NCBI RefSeq assembly: GCF_003334815.1
Contig: NZ_QOWO01000020.1
Direction: 5' to 3' (one strand)
Source: Escherichia coli
Lineage (GTDB): Bacteria; Pseudomonadota; Gammaproteobacteria; Enterobacterales; Enterobacteriaceae
Length of the DNA: 64,000 nucleotides
The notes below the pieces were generated by a model. The model made no database searches, was not told the DNA's origin, and saw nothing but the letters and a program-made list of their open reading frames with translations. The translations under genes and the position numbers were made by a program. Below are positions 27,360 through 35,362 of the stretch, piece by piece (the stretch's first letter is position 1; every line of letters begins with the position of its first letter).

Positions 27360-27980
27360 GTGCTAGACCGCCATCTTCATCCCCGGATTAAACCGTTGTT
27401 GCATCAGTGCGTGCGGGTTCTTGATAAACCGGGCATTACGCCAGATGGTTTAACATTAGTGGGATTTGCCATCGGCGTGCTGGCTCTGCCGTTTCTGGCG
27501 CTGGGCTGGTATCTGGCGGCGCTAGTCGTCATTTTGTTGAACAGGCTGCTTGATGGTCTGGACGGTGCGCTGGCGCGGCGCAGAGAGCTTACCGACGCGG
27601 GCGGCTTTCTTGATATTTCTCTCGATTTTCTCTTTTACGCGCTGGTGCCGTTTGGCTTTATTCTTGCTGCACCGGAGCAAAATGCGCTGGCAGGCGGCTG
27701 GTTGTTGTTTGCGTTTATCGGCACGGGCAGCAGTTTTCTCGCCTTTGCTGCACTGGCAGCAAAACATCAGATTGATAACCCCGGTTATGCACATAAGTCG
27801 TTTTACTATCTGGGGGGATTAACCGAAGGCACAGAAACGATCTTACTGTTTGTGCTGGGATGTTTATTCCCTGCATGGTTTGCGTGGTTTGCGTGGATCT
27901 TCGGTGCGTTGTGCTGGATGACGACCTTTACGCGGGTGTGGAGTGGGTATCTGACGCTGAAGTCGCTCCAGCGTCAGTAA
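27360..27980 (+). CDS. ynjF: CDP-alcohol phosphatidyltransferase family membrane protein YnjF (206 aa)
   Basis: ORF track 27354..27980. I chose the in-frame GTG at 27360, which sits 6 nt after the AAGGA at 27349-27353. CDP-OH transferase motif (DGxxAR...G...D). Confidence 0.82.
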   Translation: MLDRHLHPRIKPLLHQCVRVLDKPGITPDGLTLVGFAIGVLALPFLALGWYLAALVVILLNRLLDGLDGALARRRELTDAGGFLDISLDFLFYALVPFGFILAAPEQNALAGGWLLFAFIGTGSSFLAFAALAAKHQIDNPGYAHKSFYYLGGLTEGTETILLFVLGCLFPAWFAWFAWIFGALCWMTTFTRVWSGYLTLKSLQRQ

Positions 27981-27988
27981 TTGCAATG

Positions 27989-29296
27989 TTATTTGCTACT
28001 GTCCGGGCCGCGTTCACCGGTTGCTACCGGATTTTTTGGATCGCTGCTCCATTCGTACCAGCCGCCGTCATACACGGAAACATTCTTCCAACCCATGGCG
28101 CGTGCGTACATAAAGGTTTCGGACGCGCGCCAGCCGGTGCCGCAGTAGAATGAAACTTGCTGCTCTGGTTTGATATTCCACGCTTTCCACATAGCGGTAA
28201 TATCATCGGCGCTGCGCATGGTGCCATCCGGGTTATGAAAATCTTCCATATGCGTCGAGTCGCTACCAGCGTGTCCCCAACGTGCGCCGGCTATTTCACC
28301 TTTTGGTTTAATATAGCTGTAACCGCTGGTCGTACCGATAAATTCTGGCCACGAACGAATGCTCACCAGCGATGCATCCTGGCGATGCAGCAGTCCACGG
28401 GCCTGTTCCATATCGAGCATCAACTGCGGTTGTGCCGGGATCTTCACGCCGAAATCCGGTTCCGCTTTCACTTTCGGTGGCGTTCCGCGCTCAACAGGCA
28501 GTCCCGCGTCGGACCAGGTTTGCCAGCCGCCATCCAGCAGGCGCACATCTTTCACGCCAGCATAAAGCATAATCTGCGCCACACGCGCTGCAGCGTATAC
28601 GTCACGCCCATACAGAATGACCGTGGTGTCATGGCGAATGCCGTGTTTTGCCAGCATCGCTTTTAGTTGTTCATCAGAAACTTTGTTCCACAGCGGTTCA
28701 CTTTCCACTTCGTTGGTATCGATGTAGTCAGCGCCGGGAATATGGCTGATAAGGTAAAGCTTAGGAGCGCCCCAGGCCGCTTCAATGACTTTCCAGTCAC
28801 CGGCAGGTTTCGCCGTAACCTCTTTACCTTGTTGCAGGTCGTGCAGCCATTGCGGATAAACCAGCTGCTCAAAATGCGGCAGTTTTTGCAGACGGGAAGG
28901 TTCGCTTAGCGCGTCACTCAGGATGGAGATATGCGTTAAACCTGCTTTTTGCAGTCGCGTTTTGACGGCGTCGACATCTTTGTCATTACCGTACAGCGCC
29001 ACCGGAGCATCGGTTTTCAGGTTATGTTGCTTGATCCACGCGTTGAGCTGTTCGGTGCTCATTTTGTCAAGCCAGCTGGCAGAGAGGTTTAAGGCGGCAG
29101 GTTCATGACCAGAAGGGCCATTTAAGGTTTGTGGCCAGCCGTTATAAAACGCGCTGGGGCGAGTATCTATCGCTTTGCCATTTTGTTGTTGAAGCTGGTC
29201 AAGTGTAAGAGGCTTCGCCAGTTCAGCGGCCCACGAAGAAGCGCAAGCCAGCCCTAAAGCCATTGCCAGCGCGGTCATTTGAGAAACACGTTTCAT
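27989..29296 (-). CDS. ynjE: rhodanese-domain thiosulfate sulfurtransferase YnjE (435 aa)
   Basis: ORF track 27989..29311 trimmed to ATG 29296 (MKRVSQMTALAMALGLACASSWA, a signal peptide). Rhodanese domains with CGTGWR active-site loop. Confidence 0.88.
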   Translation of the reverse strand: MKRVSQMTALAMALGLACASSWAAELAKPLTLDQLQQQNGKAIDTRPSAFYNGWPQTLNGPSGHEPAALNLSASWLDKMSTEQLNAWIKQHNLKTDAPVALYGNDKDVDAVKTRLQKAGLTHISILSDALSEPSRLQKLPHFEQLVYPQWLHDLQQGKEVTAKPAGDWKVIEAAWGAPKLYLISHIPGADYIDTNEVESEPLWNKVSDEQLKAMLAKHGIRHDTTVILYGRDVYAAARVAQIMLYAGVKDVRLLDGGWQTWSDAGLPVERGTPPKVKAEPDFGVKIPAQPQLMLDMEQARGLLHRQDASLVSIRSWPEFIGTTSGYSYIKPKGEIAGARWGHAGSDSTHMEDFHNPDGTMRSADDITAMWKAWNIKPEQQVSFYCGTGWRASETFMYARAMGWKNVSVYDGGWYEWSSDPKNPVATGERGPDSSK

Positions 29297-29362
29297 CGAA
29301 AATCCCGACATTGTAGTTTTGAGTGCGCCATTCTGAACTGACGCATTGAGAAAAACTTTGCG

Positions 29363-30016
29363 TTATCGCAGTTTGTTGTAATTTTCTGACCACTGCGCCA
29401 TATCCAGAACAGAACTATCAGCAGGAACATCCTGGAGATCGTGCGTTACCTGAACGACGGGGATCGCCAGGGCGCGAACTTCGCTGAACACCCACTGGCG
29501 AAAATTATCGCGCAGAGCCACATCAAGACGGCTGAATGGCTCATCCAGGAGTAACGCTTTTGGTTGGGCGAGAAGGGCGCGTAGTAGAGCAACGCGCGCT
29601 CGCTGACCGCCAGACAAAGTGGCAGGATCCTGATGGAAAGCTCCCTCAAGGCCTGAACGCTCAAGTGCATCATTCACGGCATTACGTCGGGCATTCCCTT
29701 TAAGTGTCGCCGGTAGCGCCAGCAGTAAATTTTGCCCGACACTGAACTGGTCAAATAACAGTGCATCCTGAAAAAGAATGCCAATCTGACGCTGTGCGGT
29801 GGGTAGGATGTCAATCCGTTGCTCATTGAGCCATAGCTCACCTGTACAAGAAAACTGTTCGGCCAGTGCACCAATCATCCATGAAAACAGAGTGGATTTT
29901 CCACAGCCAGACGGCCCCATTAACGTGACAATGTCACCTTTATCCACCGTAAAGTTAACGTTTGTCAGCAAGCGGCTTTCTGGTAAACGTAGCGAAACAT
30001 TTTTCACGCAGAGCAT
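29363..30016 (-). CDS. ynjD: ABC transporter ATP-binding protein YnjD (217 aa)
   Basis: ORF track 29363..30103 trimmed to ATG 30016 (MLCVKNVSLRL...). Walker A (GPSGCGKST), LSGGQ signature and Walker B. Confidence 0.88.
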   Translation of the reverse strand: MLCVKNVSLRLPESRLLTNVNFTVDKGDIVTLMGPSGCGKSTLFSWMIGALAEQFSCTGELWLNEQRIDILPTAQRQIGILFQDALLFDQFSVGQNLLLALPATLKGNARRNAVNDALERSGLEGAFHQDPATLSGGQRARVALLRALLAQPKALLLDEPFSRLDVALRDNFRQWVFSEVRALAIPVVQVTHDLQDVPADSSVLDMAQWSENYNKLR

Positions 30017-33955: not shown

Positions 33956-33969
33956 CCTTTATCCTGGCT

Positions 33970-34647
33970 TTATTCGGCGATTTTAAAGGTAACCGTTGCC
34001 AGCGTGTTATCCGCCGGGAGAACTGAGGCATTGCCTTTGAATTTAACTTCACCACGTTTTTCAACCGCACCATAAGTGTATGTTGCATTGCTGACGATGC
34101 CGACCGGGCAGCTATCCAGACACACCAGGCAACCCGTTTTCTTCTCTTCTGCTGCCGTTAAATTACCGCCAAAGCGCATGTCCAGTTTCTTGCCATTACT
34201 GTCAACAATCACTTCATCGAAGGAATACGCTTTTGCCGCCCCTTGCCAGTTGACCGAAATATCCAGTTTGCTGCCTGTGACATGAGTCGTTTCTTTATTA
34301 TCCATCGTCATGTTTTCGCCCGGCGTACCACCTGCCTCTTTCAGGGCTTCATAAAATGCTTTCGGGGTCGCATAACCCATAAACAGCGATTTATGTCCGT
34401 TGGAGCCATCTTTAAACACAATACCGTGACGAGTGTCGTCGGTGAGGAAACGACCATTAATTTGCACCAGCATGGTTACCGTATGGTTATTGGCATCGAC
34501 ACGCAGCGGTTGGCTGTTCGAAAGTCCGTCGTATTCCACTTTTGCCGCCGCATTCTCTTGTTGATCGCAGCCGCTAAGCCCAGCAACAGCCAGTAAACAG
34601 AGTGCAGCCAGTCCTTTTTTCCATGACACTGAATAATGTTGCAACAT
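33970..34647 (-). CDS. ydjY: putative lipoprotein YdjY (225 aa)
   Basis: ORF track 33970..34809 trimmed to ATG 34647 (MLQHYSVSWKKGLAALCLLAVAGLSGC...). Signal peptide with lipobox LSGC. Confidence 0.85.
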   Translation of the reverse strand: MLQHYSVSWKKGLAALCLLAVAGLSGCDQQENAAAKVEYDGLSNSQPLRVDANNHTVTMLVQINGRFLTDDTRHGIVFKDGSNGHKSLFMGYATPKAFYEALKEAGGTPGENMTMDNKETTHVTGSKLDISVNWQGAAKAYSFDEVIVDSNGKKLDMRFGGNLTAAEEKKTGCLVCLDSCPVGIVSNATYTYGAVEKRGEVKFKGNASVLPADNTLATVTFKIAE

Positions 34648-34651
34648 CGTT

Positions 34652-35362
34652 CTATCCTTCATTTTTTGGGTGAGTAAGTGGGCTGCGGCGCGAAGCAGAC
34701 AGATCCACATGTTTGTGTCGGGCGTAGAGTTTTGCGAGCTGGACGAGAATAAACAGCGCCAGGCCCGCCAGACAGAGTTGTAAAATAAAGCGCAGCGTAA
34801 TGCCTTCATTGGCGAGATCGCTTGCCATCACGGTATAAATAACAATACCGGGTAGGGTCGTGAGTGCCGAAATAAGGGTATAAGGCCAGAAGGCGATTGT
34901 GGTTAATCCGTAAGCGTAATTTTGAATATTGTAAGGAAACAACGGGATTAAGCGGGTCAGAATAAGAAAATCAATACCGTTACGCGCAATGCCTTTTTCA
35001 ATGGCCTGGAAGGTATTGCTATGGCCAACGTATTTCAGCAGTAAATCACGTCCCAGCCAGCGCGCCAGCAGGAATGAGCACGAGGAGGCCAGCGTGGCGG
35101 CAATTAATGAGAGTAGTGTCCCTAAGAGCGGGCCAAAAACTATTCCTCCCGCGATCACCAGTATGCTTCCTGGTAACAGCAAGAGGGTGGCAATGATGAA
35201 TAACAGAATATAGAGGCTATAGCCGAAAAATCCGCTCTGGCGGATGAGTGTCTGTAAGTGGGGTAAATCGGTGAGCAGATCGAATAAACCGAAAGCGTGG
35301 ATAGCGTAAATGACCAGCGCAAAAATAAGACAGGCAAAAAGAAATTTACGCTCAGCGTTCAT
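34652..35362 (-). CDS. ydjX: DedA/TVP38-family inner membrane protein YdjX (236 aa)
   Basis: ORF track 34652..35410 trimmed to ATG 35362 (MNAERKFLFACLIF...). Confidence 0.88.
   Translation of the reverse strand: MNAERKFLFACLIFALVIYAIHAFGLFDLLTDLPHLQTLIRQSGFFGYSLYILLFIIATLLLLPGSILVIAGGIVFGPLLGTLLSLIAATLASSCSFLLARWLGRDLLLKYVGHSNTFQAIEKGIARNGIDFLILTRLIPLFPYNIQNYAYGLTTIAFWPYTLISALTTLPGIVIYTVMASDLANEGITLRFILQLCLAGLALFILVQLAKLYARHKHVDLSASRRSPLTHPKNEG

Follow-up and report, generated by a model that had tools for sequence, protein, structure and literature searches.

The ydjXYZ-ynjABCD, ynjE and ynjF genes of Escherichia coli as a possible FNR-controlled anaerobic envelope system for selenium or sulfane sulfur

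We analyzed a 64,000-nucleotide stretch of E. coli DNA (hereafter, the window) in which nine genes lie between positions 27360 and 35362. RefSeq coordinates of all nine genes map exactly onto the positions assigned by an earlier, sequence-only reading. E. coli chromosomes match the window at 100% identity, and at least 80% of the region from 27000 to 36000 is carried by 5393 of 5426 complete genomes. The genes, and a hairpin at the end of the cluster, are as follows.

34652..35362, minus strand: ydjX, VTT/DedA-superfamily membrane protein, class A
33970..34647, minus strand: ydjY, Sec-type lipoprotein with invariant C173-x2-C176-x-D-S-C180
33248..33955, minus strand: ydjZ, VTT/DedA-superfamily membrane protein, class B (the usual YdjY partner)
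32700..33248, minus strand: ynjA, CMD/AhpD-like protein with C73-x-C75-x2-C78
31524..32690, minus strand: ynjB, periplasmic binding protein of an ABC importer
30016..31551, minus strand: ynjC, fused double permease
29363..30016, minus strand: ynjD, ABC ATPase
27989..29296, minus strand: ynjE, exported three-domain rhodanese
27360..27980, plus strand: ynjF, CDP-alcohol phosphatidyltransferase family
27951..27977, no strand assigned: hairpin with a 12-bp stem at the convergent ynjE/ynjF ends, within the last ynjF codons

The five gene junctions given in the sequence-only reading were all borne out when read from the sequence. There are gaps of 4 nt (ydjX/ydjY), 9 nt (ynjA/ynjB; 6 nt if counted from the first ATG) and 66 nt (ynjD/ynjE), and overlaps of 1 nt at ydjZ/ynjA (TGATG), 28 nt at ynjB/ynjC (also 28 nt in Kluyvera) and 1 nt at ynjC/ynjD (TAATG); a 14-nt gap between ydjY and ydjZ was absent from that reading. 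Such compaction is normal for E. coli operons and is therefore evidence for an operon rather than an anomaly in itself. The description of ynjF as divergent was wrong: ynjF is convergent with ynjE, their stop codons are 8 nt apart, and the gene divergent from ynjF is nudG. The hairpin at these convergent ends has a folding energy of -22.2 kcal/mol (z -3.56), and 0 of 200 shuffled sequences fold equally well.

Four sequence features accompany the genes.

35472..35485, minus strand: FNR-type site TTGAGaaaaATCAA upstream of ydjX, 1 mismatch to TTGATN4ATCAA
35426..35434, minus strand: probable -10 element (TTATACC) of the ydjX promoter, placed relative to the FNR site
35377..35390, no strand assigned: perfect palindrome TATCAAGTTTGATA in the ydjX leader
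29310..29337, minus strand: promoter-like site TTCAGA-16-TACAAT in the ynjD-ynjE gap

The ydjXYZ-ynjABCD genes have been reported to be activated by FNR from a site at -60.5 (Myers 2013), and the position of the -10 element, as read from the sequence, agrees with a transcription start 60.5 nt from the center of the FNR site. The FNR half-site ATCAA is invariant in E. coli, E. albertii, two Citrobacter and Kluyvera, and the -10 block is kept in five enterobacterial sequences. The published single FNR-activated unit and the conservation of both elements, seen in four genera, thus uphold the claim that the seven genes form one operon. The palindrome is kept in Citrobacter sp. R56, which carries ydjY, and is not kept in C. 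freundii or Kluyvera. The promoter-like site preceding ynjE is the sole sigma-70-like match within 27200-35600, and a published expression study entered ynjE as an operon of its own. That study placed ydjXYZ-ynjABCD, ynjE and the selenium genes yedEF in one E. coli iModulon, for which it proposed a role in Mo/Se usage. The cluster has therefore already been studied in part, as an FNR-activated operon and through the Mo/Se proposal, both of which were missing from the sequence-only reading. In the literature searched, no substrate or phenotype is established for the cluster, as had been stated from the sequence.

The product families named earlier (two VTT/DedA proteins, a YdjY lipobox LSGC, a CMD-family YnjA, an ABC importer, a rhodanese and a CDP-alcohol phosphatidyltransferase) were confirmed. 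YdjX and YdjZ match a local VTT profile with E values of 2e-68 and 2.3e-84, respectively. In a neighbor-joining tree without support values, YdjX groups with VTT domains fused to HdrD-like CCG Fe-S proteins of Deltaproteobacteria, whereas YdjZ groups with VTT domains fused or adjacent to a small four-helix protein, X; the YdjZ class is a near-constant companion of YdjY. Against the model for the C55-P flippase UptA, YdjX scores 27.5 bits (cutoff 250). In a study that found polyprenyl-phosphate transporters, ydjX and ydjZ were cloned with other E. coli DedA paralogues, and a lipid-carrier transporter is among the characterized DedA-superfamily members.

YdjY has a Sec-type signal with lipobox LSGC and three cysteines that are invariant in an alignment of 34 sequences. 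Its family (PF27149) is rare, with 391 cluster representatives among 1.84 billion proteins, and no close solved fold was found for it. YnjA matches Pfam CMD (5.3e-08), scores 101 bits, under the cutoff, against NF053654 (YciW-related (seleno)protein), and has PDB relatives that include AhpD and the debrominase Bmp8. YnjE is a three-domain rhodanese, represented in the PDB by 3ipo and 2wlr. Its next relatives are a "Sulfurtransferase" of about 460 residues (6ktv, 6h98), matched over all three domains with about 300 bits and sharing the motifs SGY(S/N)YIK and FYCGTGWR. We take this protein, given in the PDB only as "Sulfurtransferase", to be EanB, the rhodanese that forms the C-S bond of ergothioneine anaerobically; E. 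coli is not known to have a hercynine pathway. According to the literature, YnjE is periplasmic, has poor thiosulfate and mercaptopyruvate activity, and was suggested to carry sulfur for Moco, with Moco-dependent phenotypes normal in a ynjE deletion.

YnjB, a signal-peptide-bearing binding protein, matches PRK11622 (560 bits) and SBP_bac_8. It has no sequence relative in the PDB; its fold neighbors (TM about 0.6) are PhnS-like, PotD, FbpA, AfuA and TbpA proteins with varied ligands, and its invariant residues are mostly aromatic and acidic (W, F, Y, D, E, N). YnjC comprises two permease halves (residues 20-261 and 360-499) that are split into two genes in Firmicutes. The top models for YnjD are PhnT2, sulfate and ThiQ, all far under their cutoffs, and none of YnjB, YnjC and YnjD passed the curated sulfate/thiosulfate and thiamine models. 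The failure of the sulfate/thiosulfate models, the residues of YnjB and the varied ligands of its fold neighbors do not bear out the earlier suggestion that the importer takes up a sulfur compound. YnjF carries the motif DGLDGALAR-x7-G-x3-D-x3-D, and PF01066 was matched on its orthologues; nothing on YnjF was found in the literature searched.

We then compared 48 taxa, with labels that are not independent of one another and crude ORF calling. The rare conserved core is the three-cysteine lipoprotein YdjY together with VTT membrane proteins. In 41 of the 48 taxa, proteins of the VTT-containing cluster share one directon with YdjY; the smallest version, found in Gemella, consists of YdjY and an X-VTT fusion. 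Fusions of YdjY include rhodanese-YdjY, YdjY-rhodanese-YdjY, VTT-YdjY and a fusion to a lipid hydroxylase (FA_hydroxylase/OlsE-like), and CCG(Fe-S)-VTT fusions occur in 9 taxa. A rhodanese is encoded within 10 kb of ydjY in 15/48 taxa. CcdA/DsbD-like and ResA-like genes lie directly upstream in Facklamia, and a DsbD-type protein adjoins the module in a Bacillota MAG. Also near the module are GT2/DUF2064 transferases (11 taxa), an MprF-like flippase domain (6 taxa) and choline-kinase-like kinases. YnjF orthologues sit inside YdjY/VTT/YnjB operons of four Firmicutes. C. freundii and Kluyvera lack ydjY and retain the remaining cluster genes; there, the ynjA orthologue (57% identity) overlaps ynjF in one operon, which argues that ynjF is part of the system. 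These operons and this overlap, and for ynjE its co-expression and the rhodanese-YdjY fusions, agree with the earlier view that both genes belong with the operon. The comparative data likewise agree with the suggestions of a sulfur-type or redox-sensitive substrate and of a link to membrane lipids.

In seven taxa, selD, yedF or both are located no more than 10 kb from ydjY. In a Syntrophaceae MAG, selD follows ydjY by 63 bp; a Desulfobacterales MAG has the arrangement selD-yedF-small ORF-ydjY, and a single same-strand run in Facklamia languida includes YdjY-rhodanese-?-selD-yedF-selB-selA. The binomial chance, estimated over taxa that are not independent and for two tabulated thresholds (4 or more and 6 or more taxa out of 48), ranges from 1e-3 to 4e-6. 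In E. coli, 5.6 kb separate selD from ynjF, and SelD is also present in the Facklamia species and Gemella sp. GH3, all of which carry ydjY. No selenium gene lies close to most YdjY loci, among them every Gemella locus, and selenium neighbors are limited to selenoprotein-rich lineages and Facklamia. There, many of the adjoining genes are selenoprotein genes too, which means that a "selenium island", rather than a shared function, could account for the adjacency.

Collectively, gene order, protein families, conservation, fusions, neighborhoods and published co-regulation lead us to suggest, tentatively, that the nine genes may constitute one FNR-controlled anaerobic relay at the envelope that handles a thiophilic chalcogen, be it selenium or sulfane sulfur. 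In such a relay, lack of O2 would turn on the nine-gene system through FNR, and periplasmic YnjE and YdjY would take the element as a persulfide, perselenide or Cys-bridged adduct. YdjZ, of the YdjY-partner class, and YdjX, of the reductase-partner class, would carry the element or a loaded carrier across the inner membrane, where the cytoplasmic CxxC protein YnjA would resolve or reduce it, as an HdrD-like Fe-S/CCG protein may do elsewhere. The product could then supply SelD or enter sulfur pathways. YnjBCD and YnjF would belong to the same system, most likely bringing in an alcohol and linking it to a CDP-activated group. The comparisons tie the cluster to periplasmic sulfur/selenium carrier proteins, making it a testable candidate for the route of trace-selenium uptake; according to a review, a high-affinity Se transporter has yet to be identified.

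Several observations stand against the relay. It leaves unexplained the lipid chemistry suggested by the ABC importer, YnjF, GT2/DUF2064, the MprF-like domain and the OlsE-like fusion. The poor activity of YnjE and the normal Moco phenotypes of its deletion are further points, as are the characterized DedA-superfamily members, which include the lipid-carrier transporter and lipid scramblases, not ion transporters. The main rival, which we consider unlikely, is a lipid head-group pathway: YnjBCD would import an alcohol (probably cationic), YnjF would join it to a CDP-activated lipid such as CDP-diacylglycerol, YdjX/YdjZ would flip the lipid to the outer leaflet where YdjY and YnjE would act, and YnjA would perform a head-group redox step. 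The syntenic ynjF-ynjB-ynjC-ynjC-ynjD genes within VTT operons of the four Firmicutes, the ynjA-ynjF overlap, the transferase, flippase-domain and kinase neighbors, the hydroxylase fusion, the weak VTT matches to UptA and the invariant YnjB residues, which resemble those of amine-binding sites and may point to a ligand of that type, favor such a pathway. It is weakened by the silence of the literature searched on YnjF and by the minimal YdjY plus X-VTT module without a lipid-synthesis gene, and it leaves the rhodanese and Fe-S/CCG fusions and the selD/yedF neighbors without explanation. The two readings could also be combined, with the lipid serving as the carrier.

That the cluster has no common function appears improbable; its parts would then be an ABC importer for a thiamine-like or other nutrient, a pair of housekeeping DedA paralogues and a sulfurtransferase related to Moco, sharing only their location and transcription. 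The JGI label "putative thiamine transport system" for YnjB relatives and the proposed Moco role of YnjE point that way, and the loss of ydjY from C. freundii and Kluyvera, with the rest kept, indicates that parts of the cluster are separable. However, members of these families keep reappearing together in different phyla, with their order changed or as fused proteins; YnjD reaches 130 bits with ThiQ models whose cutoffs are 245-298, YnjB lacks a sequence match to TbpA, and the ynjE deletion is normal for Moco. We regard as quite improbable a role in arsenosugar/arsenolipid metabolism in which the three YdjY cysteines would bind As(III), three clustered cysteines being a classic site for it. 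ArsS (TIGR04167, 448 and 406 bits) adjoins YdjY/VTT in 8 taxa and TIGR04282/TIGR04283 "arsenosugar biosynthesis" transferases do so in 11, with a nucleoside hydrolase within those clusters. Yet no such gene lies close to the module in E. coli, Citrobacter or Gemella, neither arsM nor an ars resistance gene is consistently linked, and in the sole Finegoldia locus with arsA/acr3/arsC these genes lie ~8 kb off, beyond an unrelated Opp-type ABC transporter. The family names are reportedly based on a single experimental study of a cyanobacterium, and FNR control and yedEF co-expression are left unexplained. Finally, it is very improbable that YdjY is an exported ferredoxin-like Fe-S protein passing electrons between HdrD-like/VTT membrane proteins and a periplasmic acceptor. 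Its CxxCxDxCP resembles a ferredoxin motif, several databases name it "4Fe-4S ferredoxin-type", and one homologue (P0296) has a Tat-like signal (SRRGFLAGMG). Pfam Fer4 matches are, however, non-significant (E 0.09-0.25), only three cysteines are invariant and the fold is not ferredoxin-like. The E. coli signal peptide has KK rather than RR, and most signal peptides in the 34-sequence alignment carry a lipobox and none a twin-arginine motif; such Sec export is incompatible with a pre-assembled Fe-S cluster.

Among known systems, UptA and the TMEM41B/VMP1 scramblases share the VTT/DedA domain with YdjX and YdjZ, which score 27-36 bits against UptA model cutoffs of 250-300 and fall in the TVP38/TMEM64 branch of the superfamily. 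YnjBCD has the architecture (binding protein, double permease, short ATPase) of ThiBPQ, PhnS2T2U2 and PotABCD-type importers with cluster D binding proteins; these are its best model and fold neighbors, although it misses all curated cutoffs widely and the YnjB fold identity is 12-18%. The ArsS/TIGR04282/TIGR04283 cassette adjoins the module in 8-11 taxa and is absent from E. coli. The closest characterized relative of YnjE, the 6ktv/6h98 protein, has the same Tyr-containing motif and catalytic loop, whereas YnjE has a signal peptide and is periplasmic.

YedE/YedF (FdhT/FdhU) and YeeE/YeeD (TsuA/TsuB) are, as we propose for the cluster, chalcogen envelope systems, each made up of a membrane protein and a small sulfurtransferase-like partner that contains Cys. 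They have no sequence relationship to the cluster, which differs in its VTT/DedA proteins, exported lipoprotein of a different fold and periplasmic rhodanese, and adds an ABC importer and a CDP-alcohol transferase. Nevertheless, yedEF share the E. coli iModulon of the cluster, and yedF is beside ydjY in several Deltaproteobacteria and Facklamia. The MerP-MerT-MerA mercury relay has no component homologous to the cluster, which lacks a Mer regulator and MerA. By analogy only, the proposed relay would follow the same logic, from exported Cys protein to membrane protein to cytoplasmic disulfide-type reductase, the last two at times being joined in one protein, of which the CCG-VTT fusions are an example.

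The window is chromosomal E. coli DNA, and the nine genes from ynjF to ydjX lie exactly within positions 27360-35362 in the RefSeq annotation. The segment 27000-36000 is 100% identical to many E. coli strains, and at least 80% of it is present in 5393 of 5426 complete genomes. In one matched genome, E. coli ECKH-257 (NZ_CM181232.1), the 9-kb match is in two pieces and an IS903B-family transposase is annotated under it. Public assemblies also contain E. coli-like variants (P0242 and P0122) in which ydjX and ydjY (451 aa) or ynjA and ynjB (574 aa) are joined into a single ORF; a frameshift, the loss of a stop codon, or an error of assembly is the probable cause.

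A sequence-only reading of this DNA had proposed that the seven minus-strand genes ydjXYZ-ynjABCD form one operon, and this is supported by their tight junctions, by a conserved upstream FNR site and -10 element, and by their published listing as a single operon (Myers et al., 2013). The junctions that it described were recovered as such (ydjX/ydjY, 4-nt gap; ydjZ/ynjA, TGATG; ynjB/ynjC, 28-nt overlap; ynjC/ynjD, TAATG), and to these can be added, in minus-strand reading, ydjY/ydjZ (14 nt), ynjA/ynjB (9 nt), and ynjD/ynjE (66 nt). The widest gap between neighbors within the operon is 14 nt and the longest overlap 28 nt, and a sequence scan of the operon detected no internal sigma-70-like site. 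With their common strand, tight junctions, and a single promoter ahead of ydjX, the seven genes are predicted to be one operon; in the literature, ynjABCD is treated as a unit detected by Northern blot. The gene ynjE has its own promoter-like site inside the 66-nt gap. The description of ynjF as divergent was wrong, since ynjF converges on ynjE with stop codons 8 nt apart and is divergent from nudG. In a 2025 paper, ynjE-ynjF and nudG-ynjH are among the convergent pairs whose transcripts overlap; ynjH (plus strand) and nudG (minus strand) share 35 nt at their 3' ends (26866-26900). The features flanking the coding sequences are as follows.

Sequence features around the operon and ynjE/ynjF
35472-35485: FNR-type site TTGAGaaaaATCAA, one mismatch to TTGAT-N4-ATCAA
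35377-35390: perfect palindrome TATCAAGTTTGATA in the ydjX leader, which reads as inverted FNR half-sites
27951-27977: hairpin with a 12-bp stem in the last ynjF codons, 14 nt past the ynjE stop (-22.2 kcal/mol, z -3.56)

The hairpin may be a bidirectional terminator for ynjE and ynjF. Comparison of upstream regions revealed that the FNR site and -10 block upstream of ydjX are kept in E. albertii, two Citrobacter, and Kluyvera. On ChIP and expression data, ydjXYZ-ynjABCD is listed as directly activated by FNR from a site at -60.5 (Myers et al., 2013); with a site at activating distance and published FNR-dependent expression, the operon belongs to the FNR regulon. The palindrome is kept in the ydjY-bearing Citrobacter sp. 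R56 and absent in C. freundii and Kluyvera. Mild induction of ynjABCD upon BaeR overproduction has also been published. An uncharacterized iModulon comprises ydjXYZ-ynjABCD, ynjE, yedEF, and yjiLM; its activity is higher without oxygen and reduced in mutants of fnr and arcA, and a role in molybdenum and selenium usage was proposed for it (Sastry et al., 2021). By-eye comparison of the regions upstream of ydjX, ynjE, and yedE yielded no convincing common operator, and a good FNR site was not found in the yedE upstream region.

Profile and structure-database matches agree with the product families named in the sequence-only reading, and the genes are, as it held, already annotated; they have also been partly studied. 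YdjX and YdjZ match a local profile of VTT, the DedA-superfamily membrane domain (E values of 2e-68 and 2e-84), and PF09335 (VTT) is recorded on their Citrobacter and Kluyvera orthologs, which places both as predicted members of the DedA/VTT superfamily. As the undecaprenyl-phosphate flippase UptA they were rejected (27.5 and 36.4 bits against an equivalog cutoff of 250). YdjY scored 146 bits to PF27149/NF040466 (criterion, >50 bits) and is assigned by this match to that family; its GCxxCxDSC motif is invariant across a 34-sequence alignment. Sequence search found no YdjY relatives in the PDB, and no selenocysteine (in-frame TGA) was found in YdjY homologs at 80 loci. One 275-aa homolog (P0296) carries a Tat-like signal, SRRGFLAGMG; the other signal peptides, in the 34 aligned sequences and in the fusion proteins inspected, lack a twin-arginine motif. 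YnjA has a CMD domain (5.3e-08) and a CxxC motif, kept as C75-E-F-C78 in the Citrobacter ortholog, and is a putative thiol oxidoreductase of the CMD/AhpD-like type.

YnjB (SBP_bac_8 with a signal peptide), YnjC (two permease halves), and YnjD (Walker A GPSGCGKST, signature LSGGQ, and Walker B LLLDEPFS) have the parts predicted for a binding-protein-dependent ABC importer. The transporters tried as its identity were rejected: CysPTWA sulfate/thiosulfate (YnjC, 22 bits against cutoffs of 246-415; YnjD, 110 against 502), ThiBPQ thiamine (YnjD, 130 bits against 245-298), and phosphonate (below curated model cutoffs). YnjB had no sequence match to TbpA, which ranks 41st by fold at 14% identity, and no YnjB relatives were found in the PDB by sequence search. 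Many cluster-D binding proteins match the YnjB model equally weakly in fold comparison, and therefore no ligand call is possible; the invariant residues, largely aromatic and acidic, suggest a possible cationic ligand. YnjF carries the motif D-x2-D-G-x2-A-R...G-x3-D-x3-D with a 7-residue spacer, and its orthologs carry PF01066, indicating a predicted multi-helix membrane protein of the CDP-alcohol phosphatidyltransferase family; in profile comparison it fell below every cutoff of the specific CDP-alcohol synthase models.

YnjE has a rhodanese fold and a CGTGWR loop. Its nearest characterized relative is a ~460-residue 'Sulfurtransferase' (PDB 6ktv, 6h98), which we take to be the C-S bond-forming sulfurtransferase EanB. 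Both the Tyr motif and the Cys loop of that protein are conserved in YnjE, although localization differs, YnjE being periplasmic. Published work describes YnjE as periplasmic and poorly active, and Moco-dependent phenotypes of a ynjE deletion as normal. The literature searched contained no description of YnjF activity and, in keeping with the sequence-only reading, no paper in which the operon or ynjF is given a substrate or a phenotype.

For comparison, we compiled the surroundings of ydjY at 80 loci from genomes and several from metagenomes and counted over 48 taxon labels. ORFs were called and clustered, and a small four-helix protein (X), VTT, and an HdrD-like Fe-S protein (CCG), which are joined by fusion proteins, were separated with local domain profiles. 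VTT-containing cluster proteins occur in one directon with YdjY in 41 of the 48 labels, and the smallest form of the unit, seen in Gemella, consists of YdjY and an X-VTT fusion. In a neighbor-joining tree without support values, YdjZ groups with the X-associated VTT class and YdjX with the class fused to CCG in Deltaproteobacteria.

Protein families encoded within 10 kb of ydjY
CCG (HdrD-like Fe-S) proteins: 19/48 taxa
Rhodanese: 15/48 taxa
TIGR04282/TIGR04283 transferases: 11/48 taxa
YnjB-like binding proteins: 10/48 taxa
ArsS-type radical SAM: 8/48 taxa
YnjF-like transferases: 6/48 taxa
MprF-like flippase domain: 6/48 taxa

Family representatives included fusions of YdjY to rhodanese (rhodanese-YdjY, YdjY-rhodanese, and YdjY-rhodanese-YdjY), a VTT-YdjY fusion, tandem YdjY, and an OlsE-like fatty-acid-hydroxylase membrane domain fused to YdjY. 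YdjY is therefore tied physically to periplasmic rhodanese and VTT; the fusions also give a hint pointing towards lipids. In four Firmicutes, a YnjF-like gene lies between the VTT genes and ynjB on the same strand. Conservation of the neighborhood across Enterobacteriaceae was a check put forward in the sequence-only reading. In C. freundii and Kluyvera, VTT, VTT, ynjB(C)D, and ynjE occupy the corresponding chromosomal slot, with ynjA converging on this run and overlapping ynjF by 8 nt; ydjY is absent from the slot. This arrangement argues that ynjF and ynjA are part of the system, and the missing ydjY that ydjY is an add-on in Escherichia and a few Citrobacter. In C. freundii (locus L094, 9170-10678) no gene is called between ynjB and ynjD, the expected place of ynjC, which may reflect a pseudogene or a gene-calling gap. 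In Sulfurospirillum (L036 / L010, 2433-9807), a TtrA-like molybdoenzyme (956 bits, short of the equivalog cutoff) is encoded divergently from ydjY, together with its NrfD and Fe-S subunits and with a two-component system.

Selenoprotein synthesis has been worked out in E. coli. According to a 2022 review, prokaryotes have no identified system for high-affinity selenium transport, and Lin et al. (2015) flagged neither DedA nor YdjY; nothing tying TVP38 to selenium, tellurite, or arsenic was found in the literature searched. In the window, the selenophosphate synthetase gene is separated from ynjF by topB, ynjI, gdhA, ynjH, and nudG.

20755-21798, plus strand: selD (selenophosphate synthetase), 5.6 kb from the ynjF start and 12.2 kb from ydjY

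Elsewhere, 7 of the 48 taxa have selD and/or yedF no more than 10 kb from ydjY. In a Syntrophaceae MAG, selD is 63 bp past ydjY; a Desulfobacterales MAG has the order selD-yedF-small ORF-ydjY; and in Facklamia languida one same-strand run comprises genes for CcdA-like and ResA-like proteins, VTT, VTT, a nucleoside hydrolase, X, YdjY, rhodanese, an unknown ORF, and then selD, yedF, selB, and selA. For the two cases tabulated (adjacency in 4 or more, or in 6 or more, of 48 taxa), a simple binomial puts the probability of chance between 1e-3 and 4e-6, for taxa that are non-independent and from selenoprotein-rich lineages. SelD is present in ydjY-bearing Facklamia species and Gemella sp. GH3. PrdB-like reductase ORFs occur inside the YdjY clusters of F. 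languida (L084, 4879-5343) and Bacillus benzoevorans (L071, 13115-13873), with matches confined to the N-terminal ~147 of 238 model positions, and in B. benzoevorans an 88-aa ORF lies downstream on the same strand; the two may be selenoprotein genes broken at an in-frame UGA.

In the best-supported reading of these observations, the cluster would act at the envelope, under anaerobic conditions, as a relay for a thiophilic chalcogen. The chalcogen would be captured by the exported rhodanese and three-cysteine lipoprotein, the two VTT classes would carry it across the membrane, and a cytoplasmic CxxC or Fe-S reductase would resolve it. Co-expression and synteny favor selenium as the element. Sulfane sulfur fits the rhodanese links equally well; the sequence-only reading had suggested a sulfur-containing or redox-sensitive substrate. 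The relay leaves the ABC importer, YnjF, and the lipid-type enzymes unexplained. These are accounted for by the main rival, a lipid head-group pathway, which in turn leaves the redox and selenium links unexplained; the two readings could merge into a single mechanism were the carrier a lipid.

The other alternatives are weaker. One is an arsenic system: true ArsS is encoded beside the YdjY/VTT module in some taxa, but the radical SAM protein beside ydjY in one Bacillota MAG, which scored 75 bits where the ArsS cutoff is 300, was rejected. Another is an Fe-S role for YdjY, which was itself rejected as a 4Fe-4S ferredoxin, with Fer4 E values of 0.09-0.25, only three invariant Cys, and a Sec lipoprotein signal peptide. 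That the cluster genes have no common function is a further reading of this weaker group, to be set beside both the recurrent directons and the slots that lack ydjY.

A bolder and, in our estimation, improbable proposal is that the cluster is the missing dedicated route for trace selenium (or sulfane sulfur) in E. coli and many anaerobes, working by an undescribed mechanism. The periplasmic rhodanese and three-cysteine lipoprotein would place the element on a carrier, which might be a phospholipid with a thiol, made by YnjF using a head group that YnjBCD brings in. The carrier would then be flipped over the membrane by VTT/DedA proteins and unloaded for SelD by a cytoplasmic CxxC or Fe-S reductase. 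An FNR-activated cluster that is co-expressed with yedEF and close to selD matters given the selenium transporter that the review found missing, as does a conserved core that in other phyla occurs in rhodanese fusions and has selD, yedF, selA, and selB as neighbors. The comparative evidence is new, and it turns vague 'y-genes' into specific, simple, and inexpensive experiments in a tractable organism. If true, the proposal would provide the first physiological role for the orphan YdjY fold and for the DedA superfamily's TVP38/TMEM64 branch; if it is the lipid head-group pathway that is true, an undescribed phospholipid would be made by E. coli under anaerobic conditions. Among known systems, the relay would share its logic with MerP-MerT-MerA, although the components are unrelated.
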